In this document: one piece after another, positions 170 to 45,812 of the stretch
Layout of the letters: each line of letters begins with the position of its first letter
Numbering within the stretch: the first letter of the stretch is position 1
The notes under the pieces: model-generated
The model's database searches: none
Told to the model about the DNA's origin: nothing
What the model saw: the letters and a program-made list of their open reading frames with translations, nothing else
Program-made: the position numbers and the translations under genes
Source of the DNA: a bacterium
GTDB lineage: Bacteria; UBP18; UBA7526
NCBI GenBank assembly: GCA_030619985.1
Contig: JAUXAI010000001.1
Coordinates: 8,708 to 72,707, forward strand
DNA length: 64,000 bases
Direction: 5' to 3'

Positions 170-1066
170 ATGCGCATACTAATTACTGGTGCCTCTGGAA
201 TGCTGGGCACAGATCTGGTAGAAACCTTATCAAAAGAGCATGAGGTAGTGGGATTAGATATTAAAACTCCACCGTTCACAGTTCACCGTTCACAGTTCAC
301 CGTTTGCGATATTACGAATGAAAAAGAGGTAATGAAAGCGGTCTGTGATGTAAAGCCAGAGGTAGTGATTCACGCTGCAGCCTATACTGATGTCGATGGC
401 TGTGAAAAGAATGAGGATTTAGCCTACAGAGTAAATGGGACTGGTACCCGGAATGTAACCTTAGCCTGTCAAAAGTGCAAAGCAGTTATGGCCTATATCA
501 GCACCGACTTTGTCTTTGATGGAGAAAAGAAAGAGCTCTATCTCGAAAGTGATAAGCCCAATCCTTTGAGCATCTATGGAAAAAGTAAATTAGAGGGAGA
601 GAGATATATTTCTTCCCTTTTAGATAAATACTTCATCATTCGCACTTCTTGGCTATTCGGTAGACATGGAAGAAACTTCGTTAATACTATATTAAAACTC
701 GCTCAGGAAAAGAAGGAACTAAGAATAGTAAATGACCAAATCGGCTCACCCACCTATACCAAAGATCTCGCCCAATCGATCAAAAAACTGATCACCGATC
801 ACTGTTCACAGAGCACCGACTTCGGTATCTACCATATTTCCAATAGTGGTTCCTGCTCTTGGTATGAATTTGCTCAAGAGATATTAAGGGTTAAGGGTTA
901 TGGGTTAAGGGTTAAAGGTATTAGTTCCGAGGAATTGGAACGGCCGGCGAGAAGGCCAAAGTTTTCTGTCTTAGATAACAGTCGCTATATCAAAACTGTG
1001 GGTAAACCATTAAGGCCGTGGCAAAAAGCCCTGAAAGAATATATTGGAAAAATTGAGGCAACATAA
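170..1066 (+). CDS. rfbD: dTDP-4-dehydrorhamnose reductase
   Basis: 298 aa with N-terminal MRILITGASGMLG Rossmann motif and RmlD-like body. It contains two in-frame tandem-repeat insertions. Confidence 0.85.
   Translation: MRILITGASGMLGTDLVETLSKEHEVVGLDIKTPPFTVHRSQFTVCDITNEKEVMKAVCDVKPEVVIHAAAYTDVDGCEKNEDLAYRVNGTGTRNVTLACQKCKAVMAYISTDFVFDGEKKELYLESDKPNPLSIYGKSKLEGERYISSLLDKYFIIRTSWLFGRHGRNFVNTILKLAQEKKELRIVNDQIGSPTYTKDLAQSIKKLITDHCSQSTDFGIYHISNSGSCSWYEFAQEILRVKGYGLRVKGISSEELERPARRPKFSVLDNSRYIKTVGKPLRPWQKALKEYIGKIEAT
272..304. repeat. Heptamer tandem array (CGTTCAC/AGTTCAC x4) inside rfbD, in frame
   Basis: ccgttcacagttca ccgttcacagttca ccgtt; it encodes FTVHRSQFTVHRSQFTV. Confidence 0.8.
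887..919. repeat. Heptamer tandem array (GGGTTAA-like x4) inside rfbD, in frame
   Basis: agggttaagggttatgggttaagggttaaaggt; it encodes RVKGYGLRVKG. Confidence 0.8.
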
Positions 1067-1091
1067 AATTAGTCCTATTGTAGGAGGTAAG

Positions 1092-1433
1092 ATGAAAAAT
1101 CTTAAATTCCTCAGTCCCAAAGAAGAAAAAGCAGTAAAGGAATTTTGCAAAAGCCTGAGGACGAAATACAAAAAGAGAGTGAAGTTTATCAGGATATTTG
1201 GCTCAAAAGTTCACGGCAAAAGTGACAAATTCTCGGACATTGATATATTCATCTTACTGGATAAAAAGGATAAGAGAATAAGGGATTATATTTCTCGGGC
1301 TGCCTGGGAGAGAAGCCTAAAGTATGATGTCGTTCTCTCTCCCATAGTCTATGAAGAGCGCCTATTTCGCAGGCCAGTCATCCAGATTACCCCTTTTATC
1401 AAGAATGTTTTAAAAGAAGGAGCTATGATATGA
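1092..1433 (+). CDS. Nucleotidyltransferase-domain protein (MNT-type antitoxin of a HEPN/MNT pair)
   Basis: GS-x9-DxD motif (FGSKVHGKSDKFSDIDIFILLD). A GGAGGT RBS sits 5 nt upstream of the ATG at 1092. The six-frame ORF extends upstream to 1044. Confidence 0.7.
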   Translation: MKNLKFLSPKEEKAVKEFCKSLRTKYKKRVKFIRIFGSKVHGKSDKFSDIDIFILLDKKDKRIRDYISRAAWERSLKYDVVLSPIVYEERLFRRPVIQITPFIKNVLKEGAMI

Positions 1434-1899
1434 AAAGGGAACTGGTGGATTTAGCAAAGCATAGATTAAAGAGAAGTAAGGAGGCTAAGAGAGACGCCCT
1501 CCTTCTCTTTAAGAAAGGGTCTTACGCCAGTGCCATAAATAAGAACCTGCTGAAGCAGAATCTTGTTTATTCCTTATTTAGATGAGGCAAGTAGAACGCG
1601 TCGTCATAAATAGAGCATATTACGCGATATTCTATGCTACACGCGCCTTACTAGCAACAAAGGAGCTGGATTCTTCTAAGCATTCTGGAGTAATCGCCCT
1701 TTTCAATCGTCATTTTGTTAAGAAAGGATTAGTTCCCAAAGAGTTAAGCAGAATACTCCACACTGCTTTTGAAAAGAGAATAGCCGGGGATTACAAGGAC
1801 TTTCCTGAATTTTCTAAAGAGGAGACTAAAGAAATCCTTTCCAAATGTAAGATATTTTTGAATGGAATTGAAAAGGTTTTAAAGAAATTCCTATCTTGA
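1430..1899 (+). pseudogene. HEPN-domain protein, frameshifted (N-terminal part 1430-1585, C-terminal part 1582-1899)
   Basis: ATGA start/stop overlap with the MNT gene. The N-terminal frame gives MKRELVDLAKHRLKRSKEAKRDALLLFKKGSYASAI... The C-terminal frame gives ...RAYYAIFYATRALL...HSGVIALFNRHFV.... Together they form a full HEPN fold only across a frame change near 1546-1608. Confidence 0.6.
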
Positions 1900-1923: not shown

Positions 1924-2859
1924 GTGAAAGTACTAATAACTGGAGGAGCAGGTTTCTTGGGTTCGCATCTCGTGGACCTTCTCTTAAAAGAGGGCAACGA
2001 GGTCATCTGCCTGGATAATCTAATAACTGGAAGTATGGATAACCTTGCCCATTTACAAGACAATAAAAAGTTTAGGTTCATTAAACAGGATGTAACGGAG
2101 TATATCAAAATAGATGGGCCGATTGACTATGTCTTACATTTCGCCTCACCAGCCAGTCCCATCGATTATCAGAAATATCCCATCCAGACCCTCAAAGTTG
2201 GTGCCTTAGGAGCCCATAAGACTTTGGGTTTGGCAAAAACAAAAACAGCCAAATTCCTTCTGGCCTCGACTTCAGAGGTATACGGGGATCCATTGGTTAA
2301 TCCCCAGAGAGAAAATTACTGGGGGAATGTTAATGCTATAGGGCCGAGGGGAATGTATGATGAGGCAAAACGTTTTGCTGAAGCTATGACTATGGCTTAT
2401 CATAGGTATCACGGAATAGATACCAGAATCGCTCGCATATTCAATACCTTTGGAGAGAGGATGCGGAAGAAAGACGGTCGCGTAGTTCCCACCTTCATTA
2501 CTCAGGCCCTAGCCAATGAGCCCTTAACCGTCTTTGGAGATGGTTCCCAAACAAGAAGTTTTTGTTATGTCTCGGATATGATTGAAGGACTATATAAGTT
2601 AATGCTATCCGTTATTCATGAGCCCATTAATTTAGGCAATCCTCAAGAGATGACCATCTTGGACTTTGCTAAAAAAATAATTGAATTGACTAAGAGTAAG
2701 AGCAAAATAGTCTATAAACCATTGCCCCAGGATGATCCCAAGGTGAGAAGGCCCGATATCTCTAAAGCCAGGAAACTCTTAAAGTGGGAACCAAAAATAA
2801 GTCTGGAAGAGGGACTAAAAAAAACCATTGCTTGGTTCAAAAAGAGCAAAGAAGCATAG
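1924..2859 (+). CDS. uxs: UDP-glucuronate decarboxylase (UDP-xylose synthase)
   Basis: GTG start; [14 protein letters not shown] plus YxxxK SDR-extended features; 311 aa, UXS-like throughout. Confidence 0.8.
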
Positions 2860-2864
2860 CAGAA

Positions 2865-2976
2865 TACAAGTTGACAAGGATACAAGAATACGAAAATAAC
2901 TAAACTTGTTAACTTGTCAACTTATTAACTTGTTAACTTATCAACTAATCAGCTAATCAACTTGTCAACTAATAAG
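2865..2976. repeat. Inverted oligomer-repeat hairpin (ACAAGTTAACAAGG family), empty form
   Basis: Forward acaagttgacaaggatacaag (2865-2891), then reverse complement cttgttaacttgtcaact... arrays (2905-2976). Confidence 0.8.
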
Positions 2977-2992
2977 TATGGGGGTGGAAAGA

Positions 2993-3151
2993 ATGATTGA
3001 CAAGGAATTGTTAGAGATTTTAGCTTGTCCAGTATGCAAAGCAAGTGTAAGATTAGAGCAGAATAAAATTGTCTGTATCAAATGTGGCAGAAGGTATCCC
3101 ATTCGGGACGGTATTCCCGTGATGCTGGAAAGCGAAGCAGAAAAAGAGTGA
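2993..3151 (+). CDS. Trm112-like small protein (UPF0434)
   Basis: 52 aa MIDKELLEILACPVCKASVRLEQNKIVCIKCGRRYPIRDGIPVMLESEAEKE, with the Cys4 zinc-ribbon pattern of the Trm112 family. Confidence 0.6.
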   Translation: MIDKELLEILACPVCKASVRLEQNKIVCIKCGRRYPIRDGIPVMLESEAEKE

Positions 3152-3155: not shown

Positions 3156-4412
3156 ATGAAGTTTGTCGGCACCTTCGAGAGACAAGTCTCTTTCATATTC
3201 ATTGCTCTCACATTGGGCAATATAGGTAACTTTATATTTCACATTTTTATGGGGCGTCATCTACCAGAAACGGAATATGGAATCCTCTATAGATTGCTTG
3301 CCCTTTTAATGATCGTCTCTGTTCCCGCAACTACTATCCAGACAGTAATTACCAAGTATACTGCCCACTTCAAAGCCTTTAGCCAATATGGTAAGATCCG
3401 TTTTTTATTATTTAATCTTCTCAAGAGGCTCTTCTTCTACGGTTTCCTGGGCTCCCTTATATTTCTGACGGCAAGCGGTAGAATCGCTTCTTGGCAGCAT
3501 TTTCCCTCTAGCAGGCCAGTTATGATCCTGGGAATACTTTTGTTGTTGAGTGTTATCGCCCCAGCAGCAGGAGGAATAATCCAGGGCCTGCAAAAATTTA
3601 ATTACTTAGGATGGAGCACCATATTAGGCACCGCTTCCCGTTTAATATTTGGAATTATCTTTGTCTTCCTCGGTCTGGGAGTAAGTGGGGCTTTAGCTGC
3701 TTCTATTCTCGCCATGCTTGTCGGTATATGCATCCTCTTCTTTCCCCTGAAGTTTCTGTTTAAATCAAAGGAAACAGAGGAGAGGGTAGACTTTAAAGAG
3801 ATCTACAGATATTCTGCTCCGGTTATATTCAGCGTCCTCTTCTTCATGATTCTGACCAACATCGATGCTCTATTAGTGGGAAACTTCTTTAGCCCGGTTA
3901 AAGCAGAAATTTATTCTGCTGCTGCCTTTGTGGGAAGGATGATATTATTTCTTCCCATGCCCATTGTGATTGTCATGTTTCCTAAAGCCTCAGAACTATA
4001 TGCCCAGAGAAGGGACTCTTCCCTTATCTTGAAAAAAAGTCTACTTTACGTTGGCCTCTTAGCGGGTGGAACAACCCTTGTTTGCCTTTTCTTTCCCTCT
4101 CTCATAATTAAGCTTATCTGGGCCGGTAAACATCAAGCAAGTACCCCATTAATTGGAAAGTTCGCCTTAGCCATGGCCCTATTTGGTCTAGTCAATATCC
4201 TTTTCTTCTATCAGCTCTCCATTCATAGGTTTAGATTTTTATATTTAGCAGGCGCTTTCACCCTTTTACAGATAATCGCTATCACTCTATTCCACAATAC
4301 CCTCTCCCAGGTAGTCTGGATCTTGGTGGCCAATGGAGCGTTACTCTTTTTAATTAATCAATTTTTAGTTTGGACACCGAAAAAGATTTCTGAAAAAGTC
4401 AGAAATCTTTGA
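3156..4412 (+). CDS. wzx: Polysaccharide/O-unit flippase (Wzx-like, MOP superfamily)
   Basis: 418 aa, about 12 predicted TM helices, typical polysaccharide-biosynthesis-protein architecture. Confidence 0.65.
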   Translation: MKFVGTFERQVSFIFIALTLGNIGNFIFHIFMGRHLPETEYGILYRLLALLMIVSVPATTIQTVITKYTAHFKAFSQYGKIRFLLFNLLKRLFFYGFLGSLIFLTASGRIASWQHFPSSRPVMILGILLLLSVIAPAAGGIIQGLQKFNYLGWSTILGTASRLIFGIIFVFLGLGVSGALAASILAMLVGICILFFPLKFLFKSKETEERVDFKEIYRYSAPVIFSVLFFMILTNIDALLVGNFFSPVKAEIYSAAAFVGRMILFLPMPIVIVMFPKASELYAQRRDSSLILKKSLLYVGLLAGGTTLVCLFFPSLIIKLIWAGKHQASTPLIGKFALAMALFGLVNILFFYQLSIHRFRFLYLAGAFTLLQIIAITLFHNTLSQVVWILVANGALLFLINQFLVWTPKKISEKVRNL

Positions 4413-4552: not shown

Positions 4553-5296
4553 TTGAAGGAGTTTAAAGGTAAGTTATCCATTCTGGTTCCAGCTCATAAT
4601 GAAGGACCCCATATCTATGGTAATATCCGTGAGATTCAGAGGGTCTTCGATGAAATTGGTTGCCGGTATGAACTCATTATTATTGATGACGGCAGTAAGG
4701 ATGAGACCCATGAGAATGCTCAGAAGGCGGCAAAGGGGTTCAAGAACATTATAGTAAAGAGGATGCGCCAGAACCGGGGCAAAGGAAGAGCCTTGAAGTA
4801 TGGCTTCCGCTTCGCTAAAGGAGATCTGGTGGCCTTTCTCGATGCCGATTTAGATCTCCATCCAGAGCAGATTCAAAACCTCTTCAGGATTATGAATAAA
4901 GAGGAGGTAGATGTAGTCATTGGTTCTAAAAGGCATCCAGAATCAAAATTGAAGTATCCTTGGCATAGGAAAATTATCTCCAATGTTTATTTTTTCTTAG
5001 TCAAGATTATATTCGGTTTACCTCTCAGAGATACCCAGACGGGCATTAAACTCTTTAAATATGAGGTACTTAAGAAAATATTTCCCAAGGTACTTATTAA
5101 AAGATATGCCTTTGACTTAGAATTATTGGTCAATGCCCACCATCTGGGATACAAGATTGCAGAAGCACCCATAACCTTAAATTACCAACGCTTTATGGGA
5201 CGTATTGGTTTAAGAGCCATTTATCACACTTGGTGGGATACCATGGCCATCTACTATCGTATGTATCTCCTGAAATACTACAATGGAAAGAAATAA
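4553..5296 (+). CDS. GT2 family glycosyltransferase
   Basis: LSILVPAHNEG...IIIDDGSKDET N-terminal GT-A motifs; a TTG start is possible. Confidence 0.7.
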   Translation: MKEFKGKLSILVPAHNEGPHIYGNIREIQRVFDEIGCRYELIIIDDGSKDETHENAQKAAKGFKNIIVKRMRQNRGKGRALKYGFRFAKGDLVAFLDADLDLHPEQIQNLFRIMNKEEVDVVIGSKRHPESKLKYPWHRKIISNVYFFLVKIIFGLPLRDTQTGIKLFKYEVLKKIFPKVLIKRYAFDLELLVNAHHLGYKIAEAPITLNYQRFMGRIGLRAIYHTWWDTMAIYYRMYLLKYYNGKK

Positions 5297-6254
5297 TTAT
5301 CCTAAGGTCTCTATTATTATTCCAGTAAAAGAATCTAATGAAAATCTGCAGGAATGCCTTGAACATTGTTTGGAACTCGATTATCCGGATTATGAAATTA
5401 TAGTATTACCAGATAAGATGGAGAGATTATCTTATTCTCAGGTGAAAGTCATCTCTACCGGGACTATTGGGCCTTCTGAAAAGAGGGATATTGGGATTAA
5501 GCATGCTCGAGGGGAGATTCTTGCTTTCTTAGATGATGATACCTTCTCCACCAAGGATTGGCTCAAAAAAGCAATGAAAAACTTTGAGGAGACAAACGTG
5601 GCTGCTGTAGGTGGTCCAGCCGTTACTCCAGAGAGTGACGGTCTAAGACAGCGAGCAAGCGGCTTGGTCTATTCCTCTCTTTTAGCCAGTGGAGGATTCA
5701 CTTACCGCTATATTCCCAAGGAGAAATGTTTGGTAGATGATTATCCTTCCTGTAATTTCCTAATTCGGAAATCGATTATGGAGAAAATAGGAGGCTTTGG
5801 TTCTAAATTCTGGCCGGGGGAAGATACCAAACTCTGCCTTCATATTACTAAAAATTTGGGCAAAAAGATTATCTATGATCCGGAAGTCTTAATCTACCAT
5901 CATCGTCGCCCCCTTTATAAAAAACACTTAAGGCAGGTAGCCAGTTATGCTCTTCATCGGGGTTATTTTGCTAAAAAGTTTCCTGAGACCTCATATAAGA
6001 TATCATACTTTATCCCTTCTCTCTTTGTCATTGGTCTATTCTTTGGTTGGTCATTAGGCTTTATCCATCCTTTCTTTTTCAAGATTTATCTCGGCGTAAT
6101 TTTGTTTTATCTTGTCTGCGTTCTACTTACTGGTTTTAAGCATAGAAATCCTAAACTGGCTTTTCTGGTATCCTCAGGTATTCTGGCTACTAACCTCTCC
6201 TATGGAATCTTCTTTCTTAAGGGTCTATTCTCCCGAAGGCTAAAAGAAGAATGA
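5283..6254 (+). CDS. GT2 family glycosyltransferase with C-terminal TM helices
   Basis: VSIIIPVKESNENL...EIIVLPD, a DDD motif, and C-terminal hydrophobic helices. Confidence 0.7.
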   Translation: MERNNYPKVSIIIPVKESNENLQECLEHCLELDYPDYEIIVLPDKMERLSYSQVKVISTGTIGPSEKRDIGIKHARGEILAFLDDDTFSTKDWLKKAMKNFEETNVAAVGGPAVTPESDGLRQRASGLVYSSLLASGGFTYRYIPKEKCLVDDYPSCNFLIRKSIMEKIGGFGSKFWPGEDTKLCLHITKNLGKKIIYDPEVLIYHHRRPLYKKHLRQVASYALHRGYFAKKFPETSYKISYFIPSLFVIGLFFGWSLGFIHPFFFKIYLGVILFYLVCVLLTGFKHRNPKLAFLVSSGILATNLSYGIFFLKGLFSRRLKEE

Positions 6255-6257
6255 TGA

Positions 6258-6308
6258 ACCCCGCACCTTTAGGCAAGGGCAGAAAATGAATACAAAAAGG
6301 TGCGGGGT
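6258..6308 (+). terminator. Conserved stem-loop element, copy 1 (ACCCCGCACCTTT ... AAAGGTGCGGGGT)
   Basis: 13-bp perfect stem with a loop containing agaaaatgaata. It is near-identical to the element at 58741-58806. Confidence 0.6.
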
Positions 6309-6315
6309 GAAGGTA

Positions 6316-9396: not shown

Positions 9397-9589
9397 AAAG
9401 ATAGTTGTAAAGGAGGGAAGGGTAAGGGAAAATGGTAAACAGAGCATTAAACGGGTGCGAGTTCTCCGCTATCGTGGGGAAGCCGCCAGATAATAATTAT
9501 GCGTCAGATTTGCGCCAGATAGCAGAAATAAAGAATACACGAATTTCACTTTGCGAAAAAGTGAAAATCTGACGCTGAGTGATAAAGGG

Positions 9590-19182: not shown

Positions 19183-19186
19183 TTTA

Positions 19187-29770: not shown

Positions 29771-30502
29771 ATGGGTAGTGAAGGAATTATTTTGTCCATA
29801 GTTGCTCCAGTTTACAATGAAGAGAGGAACATTGAGGAAGTAGTCAGATACTGGAACAAAGTCTTAATGAATAGCAAATTAACCGGAGAGATTGTGGTGA
29901 CTAATGATGGCTCAACGGATAGAACAGGTGATATCTTAAGTAGGCTCGAGAACGAATTAGCCAACCTGGTTGTAATAAATAAGGAACACGGCGGATATGG
30001 CCGGGCATTAGCAGCCTCCGTTTCTGCTTCAAGGGGGAGATACGTCATGACCATCGATTCCGATGGGCAGTTCGATGCTGGAGAGTATCACCTACTATTG
30101 ACCAAATTAGAGGAAGAGAATTTAGATCTGGTGACCGGTTATCGCAAGGGAAAGAAGGACTCCCTCTTTAAGGTGGTGGCCGACAGGATTCTCAACCTGA
30201 TAATCAGGATTTTATTCGGTTTAAGATTAAAGGATACTAACTGTGCCTTAAAGCTTGGGAAAGGGGAGATATTAAGGAAGATCGATATCGAGGCCATGGG
30301 ATATCCTACCCCCACAGAAATTATCATAAAGTTGGCCGCCTCAGGGGCTTCCCTTGGGGAGGTGGGGATTAGTCATCTTCCCAGAGCAGGTGGTATCTCT
30401 AAATTAAGACCGGTAAAAACCGCAATTGAGATGTTAAAGTTCCTCCTCTATTTAAAGTTTAAACTTCACCTCTCCAAATCCAGAGTCATCGCTAAAATCT
30501 AA
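29771..30502 (+). CDS. GT2 family glycosyltransferase (DPM1-like)
   Basis: LSIVAPVYNEERNI...VVTNDGSTDRT...DSDGQ. Confidence 0.7.
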   Translation: MGSEGIILSIVAPVYNEERNIEEVVRYWNKVLMNSKLTGEIVVTNDGSTDRTGDILSRLENELANLVVINKEHGGYGRALAASVSASRGRYVMTIDSDGQFDAGEYHLLLTKLEEENLDLVTGYRKGKKDSLFKVVADRILNLIIRILFGLRLKDTNCALKLGKGEILRKIDIEAMGYPTPTEIIIKLAASGASLGEVGISHLPRAGGISKLRPVKTAIEMLKFLLYLKFKLHLSKSRVIAKI

Positions 30503-37717: not shown

Positions 37718-40162
37718 ATGTATTTTATATTTAGAAAGGCGAAATTATTTTTTCTTTTTTGCAAGGTACACCCGGTAGTTGATTTAATATTTATCCTCCT
37801 GGTTGGATTACATATTTTTAGTTGGTTCCATGGAGACTTTTTATATATCGGAGGTGACTACCTCATTCCTCTTAATCCCATTGAAAATTTGCAGCACCTC
37901 TATACCTGGAAGACCCAGCTGGGCGGTGTTGAATCCTGGGGCTTAAATCAAATCTTAGTAAATGGGTTCTTTGCTCTCTTCCATTTTCTTGGTTTTTCCC
38001 TGCCAACCATACAGCAATTCTATATCTATTTCAGTCATATTTTAGCTGGTTTATTTATGTATTATTTAGCGTCAACCTTTGCCTCTGGTGAGAAGGATAG
38101 ACGAGCGGTGAGCCTGATAGCCGCCTTTTTCTATATGTTTAGTCCCTTTATGCTCGGCCTGGGCCAGATAAATGTCTACCTTCCCTATGTCTTCATGCCC
38201 CTGGTGCTGGCTTTCTATGTAAGAGGGCTGTCAGATAGAACAAATCAGATTAGATATGCTTTCTTTACTGCCTTAGCCTTATTAGGCTTTATCGGGGAGC
38301 TTCCTCAGTATAAAATGCTTAGTATAGCGATTGCTTTAATTCTCTTATATACCTTATTTCATATCCTTTTCCTTAGAGGAAGTATCCGGCATTGTGCTAA
38401 ATTTTTACTGATTATTATCGTCTTGGCATTCGCCTTGACTGCCTGGTTTATCCTCCCTTATTTTCGAGTCATTACCTACACCGGCCTGATCGAGACTGCC
38501 CGGGCTGCAACATCGAGGATAGGATCAGTAAGAGGCTTTGGAGACTATGGCTTTGCCACATTGAAGGAGCTTTTCAGAATATTGGGTAGCGCTGGATTCT
38601 ACTATGGGTCAACCTATTCCCGACCCTATTTCCATAATCCATTTCTAATTCTAATCAGCTATCTCATTCCTCTCTTAGCGTTTAGTTCTCTGATATTCAA
38701 ACCTAAATCCAAGAACGTTATCTTCTTCGCTACTGTTTCATTATTCTTTCTCTTTTGCGCTAAAGGCACCAATCCACCCTTTGGCTACATCTATAAATGG
38801 ATTGTAAATTATATTCCCTTTGCCAGGGTTTACAGGACTTCCTGGACTCTACTTCTGGGCGCAGTAATAGGATACGCTTTCCTCATAGGAGTTGCTACAA
38901 TAAGCATCTATAATAAGTTACGTCACCGTAAACCTTACCTGGCCAGAATTTTTATCTTAGTAGTTATCGCCGTTATTCTTACCAATGCCTGGCCATTAGT
39001 AACCGGGGCTTACCTCGAAAATCTCAATAATCCCCCTGATTATAAAGGAGTGGAAATTCCTCCATCATACTATGCGGCCAATGTCTTTTTGAATACCCAG
39101 GGCACCGAGGATTCTAAATTCCTGGTATTACCACCGAGCGCTAGTTATCTGATCACAGATTGGGGCTATCTGGGCAGTGCCCATTTGCTACCCTTTATTT
39201 TCTCAAAGCCCCTGATATACGGTTACCACACAATAACCTTGACTCAGGCCGTTACCAAGCTCGCCTATCATTCATTCATCCAAGAGGATTTTAATCAAGC
39301 CAGTAAGATCTTAGGCCTGCTCAACGTTCGCTATTTGCTCTTGGATAATAGTATCGATACCGCCAGCAAGATTATTATTGCGGAATATCCCTTAGAAAGA
39401 TATCGAGAAGGGTTGAAGTCGCAGAAAGGAATCCATTTTAAGAGAAGTTTTGGAAAGTTAGACCTCTATCGGGTTGACAATTGTTTACCCCATATCTTTG
39501 CCTCCTCTCACACTACATTAGTAGACGGGAGCAGCGAGGCTTTGGTTCCCCTGAGTAATACCAAGTATCTAAGGGAAAAACCATGCCTCCTCTTCTTAGA
39601 ACAGCTCCCTGGCTACCAGCAGAGAAAACTTATGAATAGAACAGATGTTCTAATTACTTTCAAGAAGGAAAGTCTAAAAATAAAACCAGTTACCTTTAAG
39701 AAAAAAACACCCCCTGAAGTCTCTTTTGAAAGGATTAATCCCACCAGGTATGTGGTGAAGTTGAGGAGGATAAAGGAGCCTTTCTGGTTGGTCTTTTTGG
39801 AGAGTTTTCATAAGGGGTGGAAGGCATACATGCTTCAAACTCCAAACTCTAAGCTCAAAACTCAAAATAGACGGGAATGGTCGGCGTTGGTGAGTGCTTG
39901 GAAGGATAGGGGGAGGAGGATTGAACTGAAAGAGCATTATGTAGTGAATGGGTATGCTAATGGATGGTGGATAGATCCGTCCAAAGTCAAAGAAATAGAG
40001 ATTGTGTTGGAGTATATGCCTCAAAGACTGGTTGAAGTTGGAATTCTAATATCAGGATTGACTTTTTTGGGATGTATTGGATATTTAGCGGGGACTGGAA
40101 TCAGGAGGAAACGGAGAAAGTTAGCTGATGAAAAAGTTAGCGATCGAGCGGAGAATTTCTAA
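37718..40162 (+). CDS. Large polytopic membrane protein (GT-C-like / YfhO-like) with C-terminal soluble domain
   Basis: 814 aa; N-terminal roughly 450 aa multi-TM; one C-terminal TM anchor. Confidence 0.4.
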   Translation: MYFIFRKAKLFFLFCKVHPVVDLIFILLVGLHIFSWFHGDFLYIGGDYLIPLNPIENLQHLYTWKTQLGGVESWGLNQILVNGFFALFHFLGFSLPTIQQFYIYFSHILAGLFMYYLASTFASGEKDRRAVSLIAAFFYMFSPFMLGLGQINVYLPYVFMPLVLAFYVRGLSDRTNQIRYAFFTALALLGFIGELPQYKMLSIAIALILLYTLFHILFLRGSIRHCAKFLLIIIVLAFALTAWFILPYFRVITYTGLIETARAATSRIGSVRGFGDYGFATLKELFRILGSAGFYYGSTYSRPYFHNPFLILISYLIPLLAFSSLIFKPKSKNVIFFATVSLFFLFCAKGTNPPFGYIYKWIVNYIPFARVYRTSWTLLLGAVIGYAFLIGVATISIYNKLRHRKPYLARIFILVVIAVILTNAWPLVTGAYLENLNNPPDYKGVEIPPSYYAANVFLNTQGTEDSKFLVLPPSASYLITDWGYLGSAHLLPFIFSKPLIYGYHTITLTQAVTKLAYHSFIQEDFNQASKILGLLNVRYLLLDNSIDTASKIIIAEYPLERYREGLKSQKGIHFKRSFGKLDLYRVDNCLPHIFASSHTTLVDGSSEALVPLSNTKYLREKPCLLFLEQLPGYQQRKLMNRTDVLITFKKESLKIKPVTFKKKTPPEVSFERINPTRYVVKLRRIKEPFWLVFLESFHKGWKAYMLQTPNSKLKTQNRREWSALVSAWKDRGRRIELKEHYVVNGYANGWWIDPSKVKEIEIVLEYMPQRLVEVGILISGLTFLGCIGYLAGTGIRRKRRKLADEKVSDRAENF

Positions 40163-42300
40163 TGACGTTAGCTAAATTACGCAATATAATGGATATATTT
40201 CCAAAAAAAGTAATATACCTATTGACAATAAAAGTGTTGCCTATAGCGCATAAAACTCTTCGATTCCTTCTCCATAAACAGAGGAAGATTGAATTATTTC
40301 TGGTGCTATTGTTTGTTCTATTTACTCTTTTAAATGGCATTAAACTAATTGACAAAATTTTTGAGCAAAATATTGGCTACGCAGATACTATGGCTAAGAT
40401 TCGTAGTTCTGACATAATCCTTGATGGCCAGGTTCCTTTCAGGGATTTCTATCGTCCCCGGGGACCGCTCCTTCTCTACCTGGAGACCCCATTATATAAG
40501 GTGTTTGGGAGAAATCATTTCGCCAGTTTCTTTAGCCATTTTTCTCTGCTTCCTGCCATTTCTCTCATCCTTCTCTATCTCTGGGCAAAGATATTCCTGA
40601 AGAGTCCCTTCCTCCCCATAGCATTTCTTATCGCTGTCTCACTCCAGAACCTGTTCTGGGCTGGTGATCCTACCCTCCGTATCTTAGCCGCTGCCTTTGC
40701 CTTAGGACTATTTCTCCTCGCTCGGCAGAGACTAAAAAAGAGATACTTCTATCTTTCTGGCTTTCTTTGCGGCTGTTCTTTATTGATTGATCTTGGATTC
40801 GGCATTGCTGCCCTGCTTACCATTATGCTCCTGCTAATTGGTGAGGGATTAATGAGGAAATTTCCTTTTAGGTTTTCTTTCCTCTGGATATTGGGTATAG
40901 TATCCATAGTATTGCCCTTTTCCATCTTTTTTCATTATCAGGAAGCATTATTCCCCTATCTAAGATATACCCTGAAGTTTATGCATCGCTTCGCAACCGG
41001 TTATGCAAAGCCTTTCCCTTTTCCAGGAGAAGACTTCAGATTCTATCTGCCGCCCCTTCTCTATTTCTTCTCCTTTCTACTGGTAATCTTTACCATTAAA
41101 AGGAAGGGCTGGGAGGAACTCAGGCGTTCCCTATTAGCACTTACCATATTTGGACTCCTGATTTATAAAAGAGCATTTTCTACTCCAGAATTTGGCTACC
41201 TTCTCGCAGTCATACTTCCCGCCACCACTATCTGTTTCATTCTGATTGAGAGGACATCCTTCGGGATTAAGGACTGTCTCTCCCATAAGAAGATAGGAAG
41301 ACTATCCCTCTCCTTTCTTTTTATCTTTATCCTCCTTTTCGGGATATATGCTACAAAAGAGAAATTAAGGGTATATAATCTTTTAAAGATACACCAATTA
41401 GCCAACCCAAAATTTTGGATTTCTAAACATAGGGATTTAGTATTTTATGACCGGGTAGGTTACTTTATATCCCAAGGGGCAGCTAAAGAATATGAAAGAA
41501 TAATAGAATATATCCAACTTCACACTGATAAAGACGATTTTATCTATGTTTTCCCCTGGGGACCATATAACCATTTTACCGGAAGGCCCAGCCCAGTAAA
41601 AATGGAGGTCCTTCTATGTAATGTGGCAGATCCGGAATACTACAACCGCGAAATAGTAGAAGAACTGGAGAAGAACAAGCCTAAATATGTTATTCTCAAC
41701 CTGTACAATGGCCAGGGAATGGTGGGCTGGAATAAGAGAAGGAATGTGCAGGATTATATCGGCTGGAAGACAGAAGATAGCCCAAATTTCGTTGTTTCTA
41801 TTGAGCAAGAACCGATTGTTGAAGAATATATCCTTGAGAATTATCATACAGAGGCCAGGTTCAGATACGCAGCAATTATGGTCAGGAACGAGAAGAGGAA
41901 AGAGTACCACCGCTGCTTCGAGAAAGTATTCTCTCAGGGTGGATTCCAGATCGAAAGGAAGCATTCTTACATTTTGATAAAGACCGGAAAAATAGTCGAA
42001 GCCACCCATCTGGAATTGAAATACAAGATGGACATTCCCAAATTGATGAAATTTCTCAGCCACAAGTACCTTGTCAAGTTAAAAATCTTCTTTTTCCTTC
42101 CGGGAGAGAAAGGCGAATGCGTGGGGAATCTAAACCTCTCTGCTGATGGTAATTTTCATACCCTTAGACTTGGCTTCTACGGTATACATAAAAAGACAGA
42201 TACGATTATGTTGAGTCTCGAGTCTCCTGGCGCTTTTAACTTCCTACCAAGAACCTTTGAGGCGGAATATCTGAATCTTTGCTGTGAAAAGGAGGACTGA
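40162..42300 (+). CDS. Large polytopic membrane protein (GT-C-like) with C-terminal soluble domain
   Basis: 712 aa; N-terminal roughly 380 aa multi-TM. Confidence 0.4.
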   Translation: MTLAKLRNIMDIFPKKVIYLLTIKVLPIAHKTLRFLLHKQRKIELFLVLLFVLFTLLNGIKLIDKIFEQNIGYADTMAKIRSSDIILDGQVPFRDFYRPRGPLLLYLETPLYKVFGRNHFASFFSHFSLLPAISLILLYLWAKIFLKSPFLPIAFLIAVSLQNLFWAGDPTLRILAAAFALGLFLLARQRLKKRYFYLSGFLCGCSLLIDLGFGIAALLTIMLLLIGEGLMRKFPFRFSFLWILGIVSIVLPFSIFFHYQEALFPYLRYTLKFMHRFATGYAKPFPFPGEDFRFYLPPLLYFFSFLLVIFTIKRKGWEELRRSLLALTIFGLLIYKRAFSTPEFGYLLAVILPATTICFILIERTSFGIKDCLSHKKIGRLSLSFLFIFILLFGIYATKEKLRVYNLLKIHQLANPKFWISKHRDLVFYDRVGYFISQGAAKEYERIIEYIQLHTDKDDFIYVFPWGPYNHFTGRPSPVKMEVLLCNVADPEYYNREIVEELEKNKPKYVILNLYNGQGMVGWNKRRNVQDYIGWKTEDSPNFVVSIEQEPIVEEYILENYHTEARFRYAAIMVRNEKRKEYHRCFEKVFSQGGFQIERKHSYILIKTGKIVEATHLELKYKMDIPKLMKFLSHKYLVKLKIFFFLPGEKGECVGNLNLSADGNFHTLRLGFYGIHKKTDTIMLSLESPGAFNFLPRTFEAEYLNLCCEKED

Positions 42301-42588: not shown

Positions 42589-43305
42589 ATGGTCCCCAAA
42601 GGTGAATCAATCTCCGTTGTTTTACCTGCCTATAATGAGAGAGATAATATTGAGAAAGCAGTGAGGAATGCTCAGGCAGCCCTTAAACTGATAGGCAGAA
42701 GATATGAGATTATCATTGTTGATGATGGCTCAACTGATGGAACAAGGGAAATCTGTGATGAAATAAGAAAAAAGGATCCAAGCAGAATAAGAGTAATTCA
42801 TCACCAGAAAAACATGGGCTACGGCGCTGCCTTGCGCCATGGTTTTGCCCAAGCTAAGTACGAGCTTATCTTCTATACCGACTCTGATAACCAGTTTGAT
42901 ATCTTTGAGTTGCGCTACTTCTTGCCCTTGCTCGATAGCTATGATATTGTTGTTGGTTTTCGTATCTTTCGTAAGGATAACAGACTGCGCAAGTTCATCT
43001 CCTGGGGATATGATAGAATTATTGGTAGATTACTCTTTAAACTGCAGATGCACGATATAAACTGCGCCTTCAAGTTATTTAAAAAGAAGGTTCTGGACCA
43101 GATTGAGATAGAATCAGATAATTTCTTCGTCGATCTTGAACTCCTGGCCAAGGCAAGGAAGCTGGGTTTTAAAATAAATGAGGTTGGGGTACGCCATTTT
43201 CCCAGACTAAAGGGACGGACCACCGTTGGTCACCACCATATTCTCAAAACTATAAGAGAGACCATTAAAATCTGGCGCAGCCTGCGTTCAAAAGATGAGA
43301 AATGA
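42589..43305 (+). CDS. GT2 family glycosyltransferase
   Basis: ISVVLPAYNERDNI...IIIVDDGSTDGT...DSD. Confidence 0.75.
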   Translation: MVPKGESISVVLPAYNERDNIEKAVRNAQAALKLIGRRYEIIIVDDGSTDGTREICDEIRKKDPSRIRVIHHQKNMGYGAALRHGFAQAKYELIFYTDSDNQFDIFELRYFLPLLDSYDIVVGFRIFRKDNRLRKFISWGYDRIIGRLLFKLQMHDINCAFKLFKKKVLDQIEIESDNFFVDLELLAKARKLGFKINEVGVRHFPRLKGRTTVGHHHILKTIRETIKIWRSLRSKDEK

Positions 43306-44027
43306 AGAGACAGAGAAGATATTATGAAATGGGAGAGGATTACTGGTGGTTTGCCAATAAATATAATATTGTCTCTAAATACCTTGATAGGTTAGCTAAA
43401 GGCGGTTCCCAGAGAATCCTTGATTTTGGTTGTGGCCCGGGAAACCTGATAATGCGGCTCTTAAAATATGGAGAAATCTATGGAGCAGATATCTCTCTGG
43501 ATGCTCTGCGCTACTGCAGAAATAAGAGGCAGCATTATGTCTTTCAGATAGAGGAAGGGGCAAGAGTTCCCATCAGAGCTAACTCCTTTGATTTTGTCAT
43601 CGCTTTAGATGTCTTGGAACATATTGAGGATGATTTCCACGCATTATTAGAGTTGTATCGTATCTGTAAAGTGGGTGGAAGAATAATGCTCACTGTTCCC
43701 GCCTATCCCTTTCTCTGGGGAAGTCATGACGAATTAGATGGCCATAAGCGAAGATATCAGAAATCCAAATTGGAAAGGATGATGAAAAAAGCCAATTTTA
43801 AAGTAGAGAAGATTTCTTATGTTTATATTCTATTCTTCATTCCCCTTTATCTCTTAAGGAAGTTTAAGAAATTTTTAGGGATTAAGAAAGACGATTTTAC
43901 TAAGGTCTCTCCGGGCTTAAATAGATTATTACTCTGGCTCAATGGTCTGGAGTTACATTTTCTGACCAAGTTCAATCTCCCCTTTGGAACCTCAATATTC
44001 TGTATTGGTGAAAAGGTTAGGGAATAA
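43302..44027 (+). CDS. Class I SAM-dependent methyltransferase
   Basis: ILDFGCGPGNL motif I and ALDVLEHIED motif II. Its 3' end lies in the left direct repeat. Confidence 0.7.
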   Translation: MKRQRRYYEMGEDYWWFANKYNIVSKYLDRLAKGGSQRILDFGCGPGNLIMRLLKYGEIYGADISLDALRYCRNKRQHYVFQIEEGARVPIRANSFDFVIALDVLEHIEDDFHALLELYRICKVGGRIMLTVPAYPFLWGSHDELDGHKRRYQKSKLERMMKKANFKVEKISYVYILFFIPLYLLRKFKKFLGIKKDDFTKVSPGLNRLLLWLNGLELHFLTKFNLPFGTSIFCIGEKVRE

Positions 44028-44168
44028 CATGAGATTCAAAAATCCAATTTTCTCCATCCCATGCTATGATTATAATAAAGAATACTATTCTACGCTGGGG
44101 ACTAAAGAGGGAATCCTGAAGAAAGTTAAAGAAGTGATGCGCTTTGTGGGACTAAAGGAGGGGATGAA
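43757..44168. repeat. Left copy of a roughly 400-bp direct repeat (methyltransferase 3' end + start of a small ORF)
   Basis: Aligns with 45810-46210 (e.g. ...ctggctcaatggtctggagttacattttctgaccaagttcaatctcccctttgg...) with a few percent mismatches and small indels. Confidence 0.8.
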
Positions 44169-44430
44169 TGTTCTGGGCATCGGCACGGGAAGGGGCGAAT
44201 TGGCCATAGAGTATCCTAGAAAAGGATACTGGGTGAAGGCCATCGATTTCATCTCCCAGGCTACAGAACTGGCTAAGGAGAATCTGCAGGAATCCGACTT
44301 TGCCATGACGAGACCGGGTTTCTGGAATGATCTCTTTGCCCGGGTATTCTCCTTTGAAAGACATTTTATGGGAAGAATCAGGTTTCCCCTGGGGGTATCG
44401 ATCATCATCGTGGCGGAGAAGAAGCTATGA
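44029..44430 (+). CDS. Chimeric small ORF: native N-terminus (within the repeat) fused to a GC-rich methyltransferase motif-I fragment
   Basis: MRFKNPIFSIPCYDYNKEYYSTLGTKEGILKKVKEVMRFVGLKEGM | NVLGIGTGRGELAIEY.... Composition switches at about 44168. Confidence 0.4.
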   Translation: MRFKNPIFSIPCYDYNKEYYSTLGTKEGILKKVKEVMRFVGLKEGMNVLGIGTGRGELAIEYPRKGYWVKAIDFISQATELAKENLQESDFAMTRPGFWNDLFARVFSFERHFMGRIRFPLGVSIIIVAEKKL

Positions 44431-45812
44431 GGATTGCTCTTATCCGTCCTCCACGGCCGTTTGACCGTGCATTTCTTTCGATTCAGACCCCTATCAATCT
44501 GGCCGCCCTTGCCGCCTACTTAATCCGGGAGGGACACGAATGCCGGATCTGGGATTTTGAGGTGGAATCCCGGGATTTACTGGGGGAGAAGATCGCGGCA
44601 TTTCAGCCTGATTTTGCGGGTATAACCTGTATGACTCATTCCGTGGTGGAAGGGGCCCGAATAGCAGAGAGAATAAAAGGCCTTGATCCTTCGATCCGGA
44701 TTGTAACTGGCGGACCACACCCCTCGGCCCTGCCTGAACGCACACTCAAGGAGTTTGAAGCCTTTGACATAGCTGTGGTGGGGGAGGGGGAGATTCCACT
44801 GGCAGATCTCGCAGGAGGGAAAGACCTGGAAGAGATACCGGGGGTCGTTTACAGAAAAGAAGGAGAAATTGAAAAAGGGCCCGATCCCCACCTGATAGAG
44901 GATCTCGATTCTCTTCCTTTTCCTAACAGGAGTCTTTTCAGCACCGGGGGTAAGGGCTATCGCCATCCTACGCGGGGGATTTCCTTTTCTGCCCGTAAAA
45001 TCACGCAGGTGTTTACATCCAGGGGCTGTTCCTTCAAGTGTATATTCTGTGCCATTCACCCGACCCTTACTCACAGGGTCAGGTACAGAAGCGTGGATAA
45101 TGTTATGGCGGAAATTGAGGAGTGTATAAAGGAATGGGGGATTGAACATTTTATCTTCCAGGATGATATCTTTACGCTTATGCGGGAGCGGACGCTTAAG
45201 ATATGCCGGGCATTGAAGAAGTTGGGAATCTCATGGTCATGTGACGGCCGTGTGGATACAGTCGATCTGGAAATGCTTGAAGAGATGAAGAATGCAGGAT
45301 GCAGGAAGATAACCTTTGGTGTAGAGGCAGGAAGTCCTCGGATCCAGGAACTGAACAGGAAAGGTATTACGAGCGAACAAGTGAGGGACGCATTCCGTTG
45401 GGCAAGGACCGCAGGTATTGAATTGATTGAGGGTTCCTTTATGCTCTGCAGCCACCCATCCGAGACAGAAGAGGAAATAAGGATGACCATGGACCTTGCA
45501 AGGGAGGTGGAACCGGATATCTTTTTTTTATCCGTGGCGGTACCATATCCTGGAACAGAACTCTACAGGATCATGACCGAAAAGGGATATATTCATGAAC
45601 TCAACTGGCCCTCCTTCACCATGTATGCGGAGAAACCGTGCTGGAAGACAGAACATTTTTCTTCCATGGACCTTGTCCGGTCTCAGAGAAAATATCTGAA
45701 TATCTATTATTTTAGACCGAGGTATATTTTGAATAGAATAAAAAAGACAAGGAATATGAAAGATTTAGCCTATTGGATAGCACAGGGGATGAGGTATTTA
45801 TGGAACCCATGA
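44427..45812 (+). CDS. B12-binding-domain radical SAM protein on a GC-rich island
   Basis: SRGCSFKCIFCAIH. The local GC is visibly above 50%, against roughly 38-40% in the flanks. Confidence 0.75.
   Translation: MRIALIRPPRPFDRAFLSIQTPINLAALAAYLIREGHECRIWDFEVESRDLLGEKIAAFQPDFAGITCMTHSVVEGARIAERIKGLDPSIRIVTGGPHPSALPERTLKEFEAFDIAVVGEGEIPLADLAGGKDLEEIPGVVYRKEGEIEKGPDPHLIEDLDSLPFPNRSLFSTGGKGYRHPTRGISFSARKITQVFTSRGCSFKCIFCAIHPTLTHRVRYRSVDNVMAEIEECIKEWGIEHFIFQDDIFTLMRERTLKICRALKKLGISWSCDGRVDTVDLEMLEEMKNAGCRKITFGVEAGSPRIQELNRKGITSEQVRDAFRWARTAGIELIEGSFMLCSHPSETEEEIRMTMDLAREVEPDIFFLSVAVPYPGTELYRIMTEKGYIHELNWPSFTMYAEKPCWKTEHFSSMDLVRSQRKYLNIYYFRPRYILNRIKKTRNMKDLAYWIAQGMRYLWNP

Follow-up and report, generated by a model that had tools for sequence, protein, structure and literature searches.

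Why would a locus for a cell-surface glycan carry five radical S-adenosylmethionine (SAM) enzymes of the class B type, and which step of glycan assembly would they serve? The question is posed by a 64-kb stretch of bacterial DNA (contig JAUXAI010000001.1 of GenBank assembly GCA_030619985.1, positions 8,708 to 72,707; hereafter the window), in which every open reading frame (ORF) of at least 150 amino acids that was treated as a gene lies on the + strand and the genes are mostly tightly packed. We put a probability of about 0.6 on the following reading: the locus belongs to an uncultured subsurface or sediment bacterium and forms the variable core of an island, no less than 61 kb in length, for the biosynthesis of a cell-surface glycan. 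A preliminary description of this DNA had already recognized a large co-directional surface-glycan locus, and both the common orientation of the genes and their glycan domain content in Pfam bear this out. Its limits, placed at 170 and 45812, do not hold, since the locus exceeds both: the 3' end of an rmlB-like gene occupies positions 1-169, so that the locus starts upstream of the window, and glycan genes extend to 61331. Sugar-nucleotide pathways for dTDP-rhamnose, UDP-xylose, GDP-mannose and, in part, a CDP-deoxyhexose are encoded. Pfam scans covered all ORFs of at least 150 amino acids and five shorter ORFs, and the curated cut-offs of NCBIfam were applied for named families.

The five radical SAM enzymes

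Five radical SAM proteins with a B12-binding domain had been counted in the preliminary description. The ORF list returns the same five genes; four of the starts are as given there, and the first gene begins at 6286 instead of 6316.

6286..7839, + strand: rSAM-a, class-B-type radical SAM enzyme with a Cx7CxxC motif (Pfam, AlphaFold); two hypervariable repeat tracts in the N-terminal domain
16661..18178, + strand: rSAM-b, class-B-type radical SAM enzyme (CPYECTFC); PF02310 58 bits, PF04055 69 bits
26036..27442, + strand: rSAM-c, class-B-type radical SAM enzyme (CPYQCTFC); PF02310 74 bits, PF04055 81 bits, HpnJ 242 bits
35614..37716, + strand: rSAM-d, class-B-type radical SAM enzyme fused to a MetW-like class I methyltransferase (residues 500-665; Pfam)
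44427..45812, + strand: rSAM-e, class-B-type radical SAM enzyme; PF02310 81 bits, PF04055 96 bits

Scanning each ORF with domain profiles recovered the Radical_SAM (PF04055) and B12-binding (PF02310) domains in these five proteins, and the SPASM domain of a sixth radical SAM enzyme described below, as claimed earlier. PF04055 scores above threshold in all five. PF02310 reaches 58-81 bits in four of them (gathering threshold 32.1) and 31.8 bits, just under the threshold, in rSAM-a. The cluster-binding motif is CxxxCxxC in four enzymes and Cx7CxxC in rSAM-a, where C235, C243 and C246 do not vary among 58 aligned family members. All six radical SAM ORFs, the five of class B and the SPASM enzyme, are intact and have complete cluster motifs.

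Pairwise identity among the five enzymes is only 24-36%, which indicates that they are not recent duplicates; from their sequences they would be old paralogs, and a recent tandem duplication was rejected as their origin on the same ground. With the size of UniProt as denominator, class B enzymes make up approximately 0.03% of known proteins, a rough estimate, against 5 of about 36 genes here, so that on this rough background the density is beyond chance. The class B network itself comprises 83,589 UniProt identifiers (2026 review, PMC12931638).

AlphaFold gave confident models for rSAM-a, the weakest PF02310 match (predicted local distance difference test [pLDDT] 89.0, predicted template modeling score [pTM] 0.91), and for rSAM-e (pLDDT 92.7, pTM 0.91). 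The rSAM-a model superposes over its full length on MgmA/QCMT, AprD4, TsrM, OxsB and TokK, and the rSAM-e model on MgmA/QCMT, TsrM, OxsB, TokK, CysS and AprD4, the best match being AprD4 (template modeling score 0.77, 25-26% identity). Because these confident models match solved class B enzymes along their whole length, the class B architecture holds; both keep the class B fold, and the concern raised with the first count, that the cobalamin-binding fold might be missing, is allayed for them.

The fusion of a radical SAM enzyme and a methyltransferase at 35614 was likewise noted before, and Pfam confirms it. Such fusions are rare: with length as a proxy for fusion, approximately 4 of the 150 best representatives at 50% identity exceed 700 amino acids. 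The MetW-like methyltransferase of rSAM-d is a separate neighboring gene in three other loci (L001, L004 and L015), and since methyltransferase and radical SAM enzyme are fused or adjoining in several lineages, sequence comparison indicates that the two may be functionally coupled.

Candidate chemistry and sugar donors

None of the five enzymes reaches the cut-off of any curated NCBIfam family. The top model for all five is HpnJ (TIGR03471), at 109-242 bits against a cut-off of 577.6; HpnJ is needed to form a cyclitol ether head group from lipid-bound glucosamine and is not a methylase (PMC12324291). No hopanoid genes (SHC, HpnH) were found among the window ORFs in the Pfam scans. The closest solved relative of rSAM-c, rSAM-d and rSAM-e is AprD4 (E-values of 7e-26, 6.5e-22 and 5e-35; PDB 6FD2), a 1,2-diol dehydratase of the radical SAM type whose substrate is an aminoglycoside sugar and which does not bind cobalamin; it is explicitly listed as an unrelated architecture that the class B network has picked up (PMC12931638). 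The sequence similarity to AprD4 is restricted to the radical SAM core; the AprD4 family model NF033070 gives at best 145.8 bits, in that core only, against a cut-off of 500. In sequence, the N-terminal domains match not AprD4 but the cobalamin domains of TokK, CysS and MgmA, the E-values of the TokK and CysS matches being only 1e-10 to 1e-4. On these alignments, cobalamin dependence of the five enzymes is likely. The models for known methylases (PhpK, KedN5, HpnR, the MCR-glutamine methylase, the C-methyltransferases of ribosomally synthesized and post-translationally modified peptides [RiPPs] and the TsrM type) all stay far below their cut-offs for the five enzymes.

These scores bear directly on the earlier prediction of a heavily C-methylated glycan, according to which most or all of the five enzymes would be cobalamin-dependent C-methyltransferases of the GenK/Fom3 type acting on nucleotide sugars. 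We regard this as rather unlikely. C-methyltransferases do occur in every functionally characterized group of the class B network (PMC12931638), several sugar-nucleotide pathways lie nearby, and PF02310 is over threshold in four of the five enzymes, whose N-terminal domains align to true cobalamin domains. Against it stand the methylase cut-offs, none of which is reached, the top rank of the non-methylase HpnJ for all five enzymes, and the cobalamin-free dehydratase AprD4 as nearest solved relative of three; the heavily C-methylated glycan is accordingly not established. Moreover, the gene order ties the enzymes to genes for family 2 glycosyltransferases (GT2) and membrane-bound GT-C glycosyltransferases, not to sugar-nucleotide genes, and methylating and non-methylating members of the largest class B group are indistinguishable by sequence or structure (PMC12931638). 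C-methylation therefore appears, on sequence grounds, to be one possibility among several, given HpnJ as best family match and AprD4 as closest solved relative of three enzymes.

The aminoglycoside pathways of GenK and GenD1/GntE, enzymes listed in PMC12931638, provide the general background for this comparison. Both enzymes have the same two-domain architecture and act on sugars alongside class I methyltransferases. They belong to secondary-metabolite clusters and work on soluble pseudo-oligosaccharides, whereas the island enzymes adjoin GT2 and GT-C genes in a surface-glycan locus and have no close sequence relationship to characterized methylases in NCBIfam.

The same observations can be read in the opposite direction, with some or all of the five enzymes performing non-methylating sugar chemistry, be it AprD4-like dehydration to deoxy sugars, HpnJ- or OxsB-like ring contraction or epimerization, and with class I methyltransferases supplying O-, N- or enolate C-methylation. 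This is possible, with the odds somewhat against it. The top model for all five enzymes is one of known role, AprD4 is the best match of rSAM-e in both sequence and fold, the largest class B group does hold non-methylating enzymes (PMC12931638), and a class I methyltransferase is adjacent or fused in four of the five cases. The scores nevertheless lie far below the cut-offs of HpnJ and AprD4; the similarity to AprD4 leaves out precisely the N-terminal domain that resembles true cobalamin domains, and an AprD3-like partner reductase is missing beside the best AprD4-like genes.

The genes that surround the five enzymes point to the form in which the sugars may be presented to them.

3156..4412, + strand: MOP/Wzx-type flippase, first gene of a four-gene cassette; PF01943 64 bits (threshold 28.2), approximately 10 transmembrane (TM) segments
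4553..5296, + strand: short GT2, ArnC/PpgS-like, second cassette gene; PF00535, best NCBIfam matches ArnC and PpgS, below cut-offs
5283..6254, + strand: GT2 with a C-terminal TM segment, third cassette gene, directly upstream of rSAM-a (Pfam, TM scan, NCBIfam)
15737..16657, + strand: class I methyltransferase with an N-terminal Trm112p-like zinc ribbon (Pfam); ends 3 nt before rSAM-b
18190..19182, + strand: GT2 (Pfam)
21167..22057, + strand: GT2 with two C-terminal TM helices, of the GtrB/ArnC/AglJ-like polyprenyl-phosphate sugar synthase type (Pfam, TM scan, NCBIfam)
25108..25974, + strand: GT2 with two C-terminal TM helices, polyprenyl-phosphate sugar synthase type (Pfam, TM scan, NCBIfam)
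27633..29768, + strand: GT-C glycosyltransferase, PMT_2/ArnT type, approximately 12 TM segments; PF13231 33.5 bits (threshold 26.1)
29771..30502, + strand: short GT2, ArnC-like (Pfam, NCBIfam); 2 nt after the GT-C gene 27633
32426..35560, + strand: 1044-aa protein whose N-terminal part has 12 TM segments and whose C-terminal domain, about 600 aa long, is soluble; only its topology is GT-C-like or polymerase-like
37718..40162, + strand: GT-C glycosyltransferase, AftD N-terminal GT-C type; PF11847 38.6 bits (threshold 26), 1 nt after the fusion gene
40162..42300, + strand: 712-aa protein with 9 TM segments, GT-C-like by topology only
42589..44027, + strand: short GT2 (ArnC-like) overlapping a class I methyltransferase gene (43302) (Pfam, NCBIfam)
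49786..51658, + strand: YfhO/DUF6311-type GT-C gene (assigned by its orthologs), split in two frames (49786/50975) at a repeat-rich linker, 50859-50939

The Wzx flippase named before is clear from its Pfam score. Of the four GT-C-like proteins counted then, 27633 and 37718 are supported by Pfam, and 32426 and 40162 by membrane topology only; with the split gene at 49786, the GT-C-like proteins of the window number five (PMT_2, AftD type, YfhO/DUF6311 type, and the two by topology). The five short GT2 proteins (4553, 21167, 25108, 29771 and 42589) find their best NCBIfam matches in ArnC, PpgS, AglJ or dolichyl-phosphate hexose transferase, all below cut-off, and two of them have paired C-terminal TM helices. 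Because approximately five ArnC/GtrB-like GT2 genes and five genes for GT-C-like membrane proteins are present, we infer by analogy that the island may run largely on lipid-linked monosaccharide donors. The ArnC/GtrB/PpgS-like GT2 enzymes would load sugars onto polyprenyl phosphate; the adjoining radical SAM enzymes, often with a partner methyltransferase, would remodel the polyprenyl-phosphate- or nucleotide-linked sugar at unactivated carbons, the candidate reactions being C-methylation, deoxygenation, ring rearrangement and epimerization; a flippase would carry the lipid-linked donor across the membrane; and GT-C-type enzymes (27633, 37718, the split 49786/50975 and possibly 32426 and 40162) would attach the sugar to a glycan or protein acceptor outside the cytoplasm. 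The surface glycan that results would carry many decorations and differ from strain to strain.

The packing of the genes follows these pairings. GT2 25108, rSAM-c and GT-C 27633 are consecutive, only 2 nt separate this GT-C gene from GT2 29771, and 1 nt separates the rSAM-d fusion gene from GT-C 37718. Methyltransferase 15737, rSAM-b and GT2 18190 follow one another with gaps of 3 and 11 nt. As donor flippases, the MOP-family protein 3156 and a weak EamA/TMEM234-like four-TM protein at 53319 (E 5e-4) are candidates. The latter (53319-53747, 142 aa) has two weak matches to EamA and TMEM234 (E 5e-4 and 3e-3), overlaps the start of ManC and is 75-93% identical in relatives; its sequence suggests that it may be a small ArnE/F-like flippase for lipid-linked sugars.

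Three-component systems (GtrA/B/C, ArnC/ArnD/ArnT, CsbB/YfhO and the GT136 pentofuranose systems) likewise combine a polyprenyl-phosphate synthase, a flippase and a GT-C enzyme, and the window has the matching gene types and pairings: the GT-C proteins 27633 (PMT_2) and 37718 (AftD) lie above their Pfam thresholds, and 49786/50975 is orthologous to YfhO/DUF6311. ArnD tailors a lipid-linked donor in such a system. Auxiliary epimerases, too, can tailor the donor on its lipid carrier (PMC11127046). Known systems of this kind tailor by epimerases or deformylases, not by radical SAM enzymes, and the approximately five parallel modules of the island are unusually many. Remodeling of a lipid-bound sugar by a class B enzyme has a precedent in HpnI/HpnK/HpnJ (PMC12324291), where a GT2 attaches the sugar to the lipid and HpnJ, the family model that ranks first for all five island enzymes, then remodels it. 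The island differs in its much lower HpnJ scores and in having neither SHC nor HpnH in the window, and its carrier is presumed to be polyprenyl phosphate.

The radical SAM genes could also serve a product that is not a glycan, either in the modification of membrane or carrier lipids (of the ladderane, glycerol dialkyl glycerol tetraether or hopanoid-methylase-like kind) or in peptide maturation by an AsnB-like cyclase and a SPASM maturase. The pair of genes concerned lies between two of the GT2 genes listed above.

22060..23946, + strand: glutamine-dependent AsnB-type amidotransferase; TIGR01536 541 bits (cut-off 267)
23951..25039, + strand: radical SAM/SPASM enzyme; PF04055 77 bits, PF13186 55.5 bits, NCBIfam subfamily cut-offs not reached

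We consider a non-glycan product very improbable. Weak matches to rSAM_ladder_B12, HpnR, ApyD and rSAM_ocin_1 speak for it, as do a homolog of rSAM-e, 46% identical, in a non-glycan context (L062) and a match of the AsnB protein to the lasso-cyclase model (297 bits against a cut-off of 525). This protein, however, passes the true asparagine-synthase equivalog model and keeps an intact glutaminase domain, and a lasso-peptide or RiPP module was rejected for that reason. Glycosyltransferase or sugar genes flank every radical SAM gene, often within a few nucleotides, the association with glycans recurs in unrelated lineages, and neither lipid-synthesis genes nor obvious precursor-peptide genes were seen in the window. 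The pairing of a SPASM enzyme at 23951 with AsnB, as first described, is supported by both domains and by a start 4 nt after the AsnB gene, to which the SPASM gene is likely translationally coupled. Sugar-acting twitch/SPASM enzymes and WbpS-type amidotransferases offer analogues, by which the pair would probably oxidize or epimerize, and then amidate, a sugar acid.

The island, its relatives and its recurrence

The close relatives compared were L065 and L069 (both from GCA_030615855.1, LepA 95% identical), L066 (LepA 80%), L067 and L070; relatives with 80-99% identical LepA occur only in subsurface and marine-sediment records, and LepA proteins of named organisms reach no more than 64% identity and come from many phyla. 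Common to the relatives are a 5' part, consisting of the rml genes, the UDP-xylose synthase, a Trm112p-like gene, the flippase, GT2 and rSAM-a, and a 3' part with the YfhO-like gene, DUF3108, ManC, PMM, two GT2 genes, a phosphatase, a GT4 (family 4 glycosyltransferase) gene and LepA, the identities in the shared flanks ranging from approximately 40% (DUF3108) to 97%. The middle varies between relatives, yet carries B12-type radical SAM genes with methyltransferase or SPASM partners there as well (L069 18350-20559; L070 18995-21527). Since close relatives keep both flanks and differ in the middle, the comparison identifies the locus as a putative glycan island that varies from strain to strain between its conserved flanks and regularly carries class B radical SAM genes. 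The orthologs of rSAM-a and LepA are 51.5 kb apart in an independently assembled congener and 55.5 kb apart in the window; this conserved synteny and spacing makes gross misassembly unlikely, and the joining of different contigs, which had been raised as a possible flaw, was rejected at large scale.

In a survey for similar loci, one genome per species was scanned with the fusion protein, and all window ORFs were then compared by tblastn. Class B arrays of three to six genes recur in glycan loci of Omnitrophota, Planctomycetota and DPANN metagenome-assembled genomes (MAGs). Two arrays are denser than that of the window: L002, from an Omnitrophota MAG, has six tandem rSAM-b-like genes (8332-19406), and L064, also from Omnitrophota, has five B12-binding radical SAM genes (3690-11416), flanked by a PMT_2-TPR GT-C gene, a short GT2 gene, a polysaccharide deacetylase gene and a further radical SAM gene. 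Four to five class B genes lie in L001 (a Planctomycetales MAG), and three each in L003 (an Omnitrophota MAG) and L017 (a nanoarchaeal MAG), both of which also have PMT_2/YfhO-like and MOP flippase genes. The glycan locus L063 combines a B12-binding radical SAM enzyme with two SPASM enzymes and AsnB. In the open-access literature, no relevant account was found that places class B radical SAM enzymes in an O-antigen, capsule, S-layer or Omnitrophota setting. The view that such a density is not a described system therefore stands as far as this literature goes, and the comparable or denser arrays elsewhere take away its singularity.

The most widespread unit is the cassette that ends in rSAM-a. 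The rSAM-a family has more than 6,400 matches at E-values up to 1e-20, and rSAM-a is 60-87% identical across the candidate phyla radiation (CPR; Shapirobacteria), Candidatus Hakubella and Omnitrophota; the cassette radical SAM enzyme with Cx7CxxC has thousands of members in CPR, Omnitrophota, actinobacterial-like and other lineages. A 5283-like GT2 gene stands directly upstream of rSAM-a, and a 4553-like GT2 gene further upstream, in all seven loci examined, orthologs of 4553 next to rSAM-a elsewhere being 37-92% identical. The MOP flippase gene is also upstream of rSAM-a in at least five of the seven (the window, L069, L070, L071 and L072). By these comparisons, the cassette of flippase, two GT2 enzymes and Cx7CxxC radical SAM enzyme appears conserved across phyla. 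The association of glycan loci with radical SAM tailoring enzymes is real, recurrent and uncharacterized; the enzyme class and the logic of glycan assembly are both already known.

A different history is recorded around rSAM-e, which looks like a recently inserted cassette. Its stretch has a GC content of 0.465 against approximately 0.39 in the flanks, and its best non-self homolog is just 46% identical. Direct repeats of 277 nt, 83% identical (43769-44045 and 45822-46098, + strand), bracket rSAM-e together with a truncated methyltransferase ORF; each comprises a methyltransferase 3' end and the start of the next ORF, and they look like the insertion scar. The recent insertion is read from the deviant GC, these repeats, the methyltransferase remnants and the distance of the best homolog.

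The insertion raises the possibility that the density of radical SAM genes reflects exchangeable cassettes piled up in a recombination hotspot, with no coherent pathway and with several of them perhaps inactive. The frameshift in the YfhO-like gene, the interspersed Schlafen/AlbA, PD-(D/E)XK and four-helix-bundle genes and the differing island middle in congeners fit such a history as well. We nevertheless judge it unlikely. The six radical SAM ORFs are intact with complete cluster motifs, the genes are tightly packed on one strand, and the conservation of the rSAM-a cassette at 60-87% across phyla argues for strong purifying selection. Turnover of cassettes is, moreover, normal in functional O-antigen and capsule loci.

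Several observations weigh against a single surface-glycan pathway that runs on lipid-linked donors. No initiating phosphoglycosyltransferase, Wzy polymerase, chain-length regulator, ligase such as WaaL or export gene was recognized by Pfam among the window ORFs of at least 150 amino acids and five shorter ones. The polyprenyl-phosphate synthase assignments are all under curated cut-offs, and the GT-C-like proteins 32426 and 40162 have no detectable homology: they gave no match in Pfam (E up to 1), in a PDB sequence search or in BLAST against the other membrane proteins of the window. Both are polytopic and could hide a polymerase. Given the remnants that mark rSAM-e as recently inserted and the frameshifted GT-C gene, some of the island may be inactive or may contribute to several glycans, and the rSAM-e homolog in L062 lies outside any glycan context. 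Cobalamin binding is not readable from sequence, there being no diagnostic motif, and Rfam found no cobalamin riboswitch in the window. Finally, nucleotide sugars or the finished polymer are equally conceivable substrates of the radical SAM enzymes.

Accessory genes, repeat tracts and significance

The remaining genes supply sugar nucleotides, further glycosyltransferases and the two ends of the locus.

1..169, + strand: rmlB-like dTDP-glucose 4,6-dehydratase, 3' end; the frame-0 translation ends ...WYRNNESWWRKL; the rml order in the relative L070 is nucleotidyltransferase, isomerase, short-chain dehydrogenase/reductase (SDR), RmlD
170..1066, + strand: RmlD, dTDP-4-dehydrorhamnose reductase; PF04321 340 bits, three in-frame 7-nt repeat tracts
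1924..2859, + strand: UDP-glucuronate decarboxylase (UDP-xylose synthase); 355 bits, E 3e-105, full length to human UXS1 (2B69/4GLL)
2903..2973, + strand: tandem array of octamers (AACTTGTC and variants) directly preceding the Trm112p-like and flippase genes, a candidate for a regulatory or phase-variable element
2978..3151, + strand: Trm112p-like zinc-ribbon protein of 57 aa before the flippase gene (ORF; orthologs in L069 and L070 carry PF03966)
9551..10558, + strand: GT2; PF00535 94 bits, ortholog after rSAM-a in L004 and L069
10592..14563, + strand: partial CDP-3,6-dideoxyhexose-type pathway of nucleotidyltransferase, SDR, RfbH 3-dehydrase and CDP-glucose 4,6-dehydratase-like SDR (NCBIfam)
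14557..15747, + strand: GT4 (PF00534)
19133..19798, + strand: MetW-like class I methyltransferase; PF07021 75 bits
19795..20964, + strand: GT4 (Pfam)
30515..32433, + strand: sugar-1-phosphate nucleotidyltransferase and SDR epimerase/dehydratase (Pfam, NCBIfam)
43984..44430, + strand: truncated methyltransferase remnant, weak match to the N-terminal half of methyltransferase models only
46430..49785, + strand: three ORFs (385, 322 and 407 aa) with no family match in Pfam
51939..61331, + strand: 3' flank with DUF3108, PD-(D/E)XK nuclease, four-TM EamA-like protein, ManC, PMM, two GT2, His_Phos phosphatase and GT4 (Pfam; synteny with L065, L066 and L067 at 67-97% identity)

The UDP-xylose synthase named in the preliminary description is well supported by its match to human UXS1. 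The CDP-3,6-dideoxyhexose pathway stands in part: RfbH passes its cut-off (739 bits against 423), whereas the RfbF-like glucose-1-phosphate cytidylyltransferase (175 against 300) and the RfbG-like CDP_4_6_dhtase (219 against 278) stay under theirs, and no RfbI/E3 gene was found among the window ORFs with NCBIfam. Four class I methyltransferase units are present as counted before (15737, 19133, 43302 and the fusion domain of rSAM-d), in addition to the remnant at 43984-44430. The figures of at least ten GT2 and three GT4 proteins between 170 and 45812 were too high: we count eight and two there, and only the window as a whole yields the larger numbers. Searches of the window with Rfam for riboswitches and with ARAGORN for tRNAs were negative.

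Some genes have no evident part in glycan synthesis. A Schlafen AlbA_2/HATPase_c_4/HTH gene, not glycan-related, lies at 7983-9362, in a region of skewed strand composition (AT skew 0.197), where L004 has a MetW-like methyltransferase gene after rSAM-a. Small accessory genes are scattered at 1044-1433, 1582-1899, 52911-53306, 59683-60057 and 61328-61732; two of them resemble, by eye, a nucleotidyltransferase/HEPN-like pair, one encodes a PD-(D/E)XK nuclease (PF13366), and two encode four-helix-bundle proteins of the "23S rRNA intervening sequence" type, judged from an annotated homolog in L065. Of the three ORFs without family match, 47593 and 48562 are distant paralogs (E 6e-14), and 46430 and 47593 have homologs next to the YfhO-like gene in L067.

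Tandem-repeat arrays with a TRF score of 50 or more number 18 in the window, compared with approximately 0.4 in simulated sequence; the units are mostly 7-9 nt long and many arrays are intergenic. In-frame tracts within genes occur in RmlD (270-304, 790-819 and 884-919), rSAM-a (6606-6637 and 6761-6805), ManC (54212-54246) and the end of 49786 (50859-50939), and the same sites hold different repeat units in close relatives. Two genes are broken exactly at such tracts and each is mended by a change of one unit. One added AGGTCATC octamer restores a 626-aa ORF in the YfhO-like gene (49786-51658), which is a single ORF in L069 (Pfam YfhO), L067, L001 and L008; a metagenome scan with one half of this protein returned only two short loci. 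The rSAM-a gene of the congener (L069 9718-11206) is split at a repeat tract, and removal of one AAACTCA heptamer restores its ORF. Because of these two cases, the sequences suggest that the tracts may undergo slipped-strand phase variation; it is also possible that the breaks are fixed pseudogenes or assembly errors at repeats.

Octamer arrays (AACTTGTC, AACTTATC and AACTAATC) lie at 2903-2973, 56436-56478 and 60057-60092, the latter two upstream of two glycosyltransferase genes; the octamer pattern has 16 matches in the window, with 0.03 expected, and the array at 2903-2973 has about 9.5 units compared with about 5 in L069. A related inverted octamer array is found at 59630-59673. Separately, 70-nt direct repeats, 91% identical and rich in ACGCGAA (51637-51706 and 52848-52917, with a related array at 52772-52917), flank the DUF3108 gene, and a similar ACGCGAA-rich spacer occurs in L069 (660-730). 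The contingency loci of Haemophilus influenzae, with tetranucleotide repeats in lipooligosaccharide genes and heptanucleotide repeats in the hmw promoters, similarly have tracts in or upstream of surface genes, where a change of one unit switches the frame. The island tracts differ in their 7-8-nt units, in lying in protein loops where they are kept in frame, in varying between relatives and in their environmental host. Tracts with units of 6-9 nt are rarely reported in bacteria (PMC4692102).

A wider proposal can be drawn from these findings, namely that class-B-type radical SAM enzymes form a regular, hitherto unrecognized layer in the tailoring of prokaryotic surface glycans, that the cassette makes and exports a remodeled lipid-linked sugar which a GT-C enzyme installs outside the cell, and that in-gene repeats of 7-8 nt switch the system in this lineage. 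As a whole it is tentative, and we would not at present expect all of it to hold. More than 80,000 class B radical SAM enzymes are known, the majority of them without an assigned function, and the largest groups have yet to be explored (PMC12931638). If tailoring of lipid-linked or nucleotide sugars is indeed their task in such loci, a great many radical SAM genes now annotated as "hypothetical" could be assigned a place in cell physiology, environmental bacteria and archaea would be expected to make new branched, deoxy or rearranged sugars, and enzymes for the C-H functionalization of carbohydrates would become available. Being compact, the conserved four-gene cassette lends itself to testing by expression. 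Next to nothing is known about surface glycans in uncultured phyla. Should the repeat tracts prove truly phase-variable, the biology of contingency loci would reach free-living subsurface bacteria, and selection acting at the cell surface, with phages or grazers as possible agents, would be indicated.

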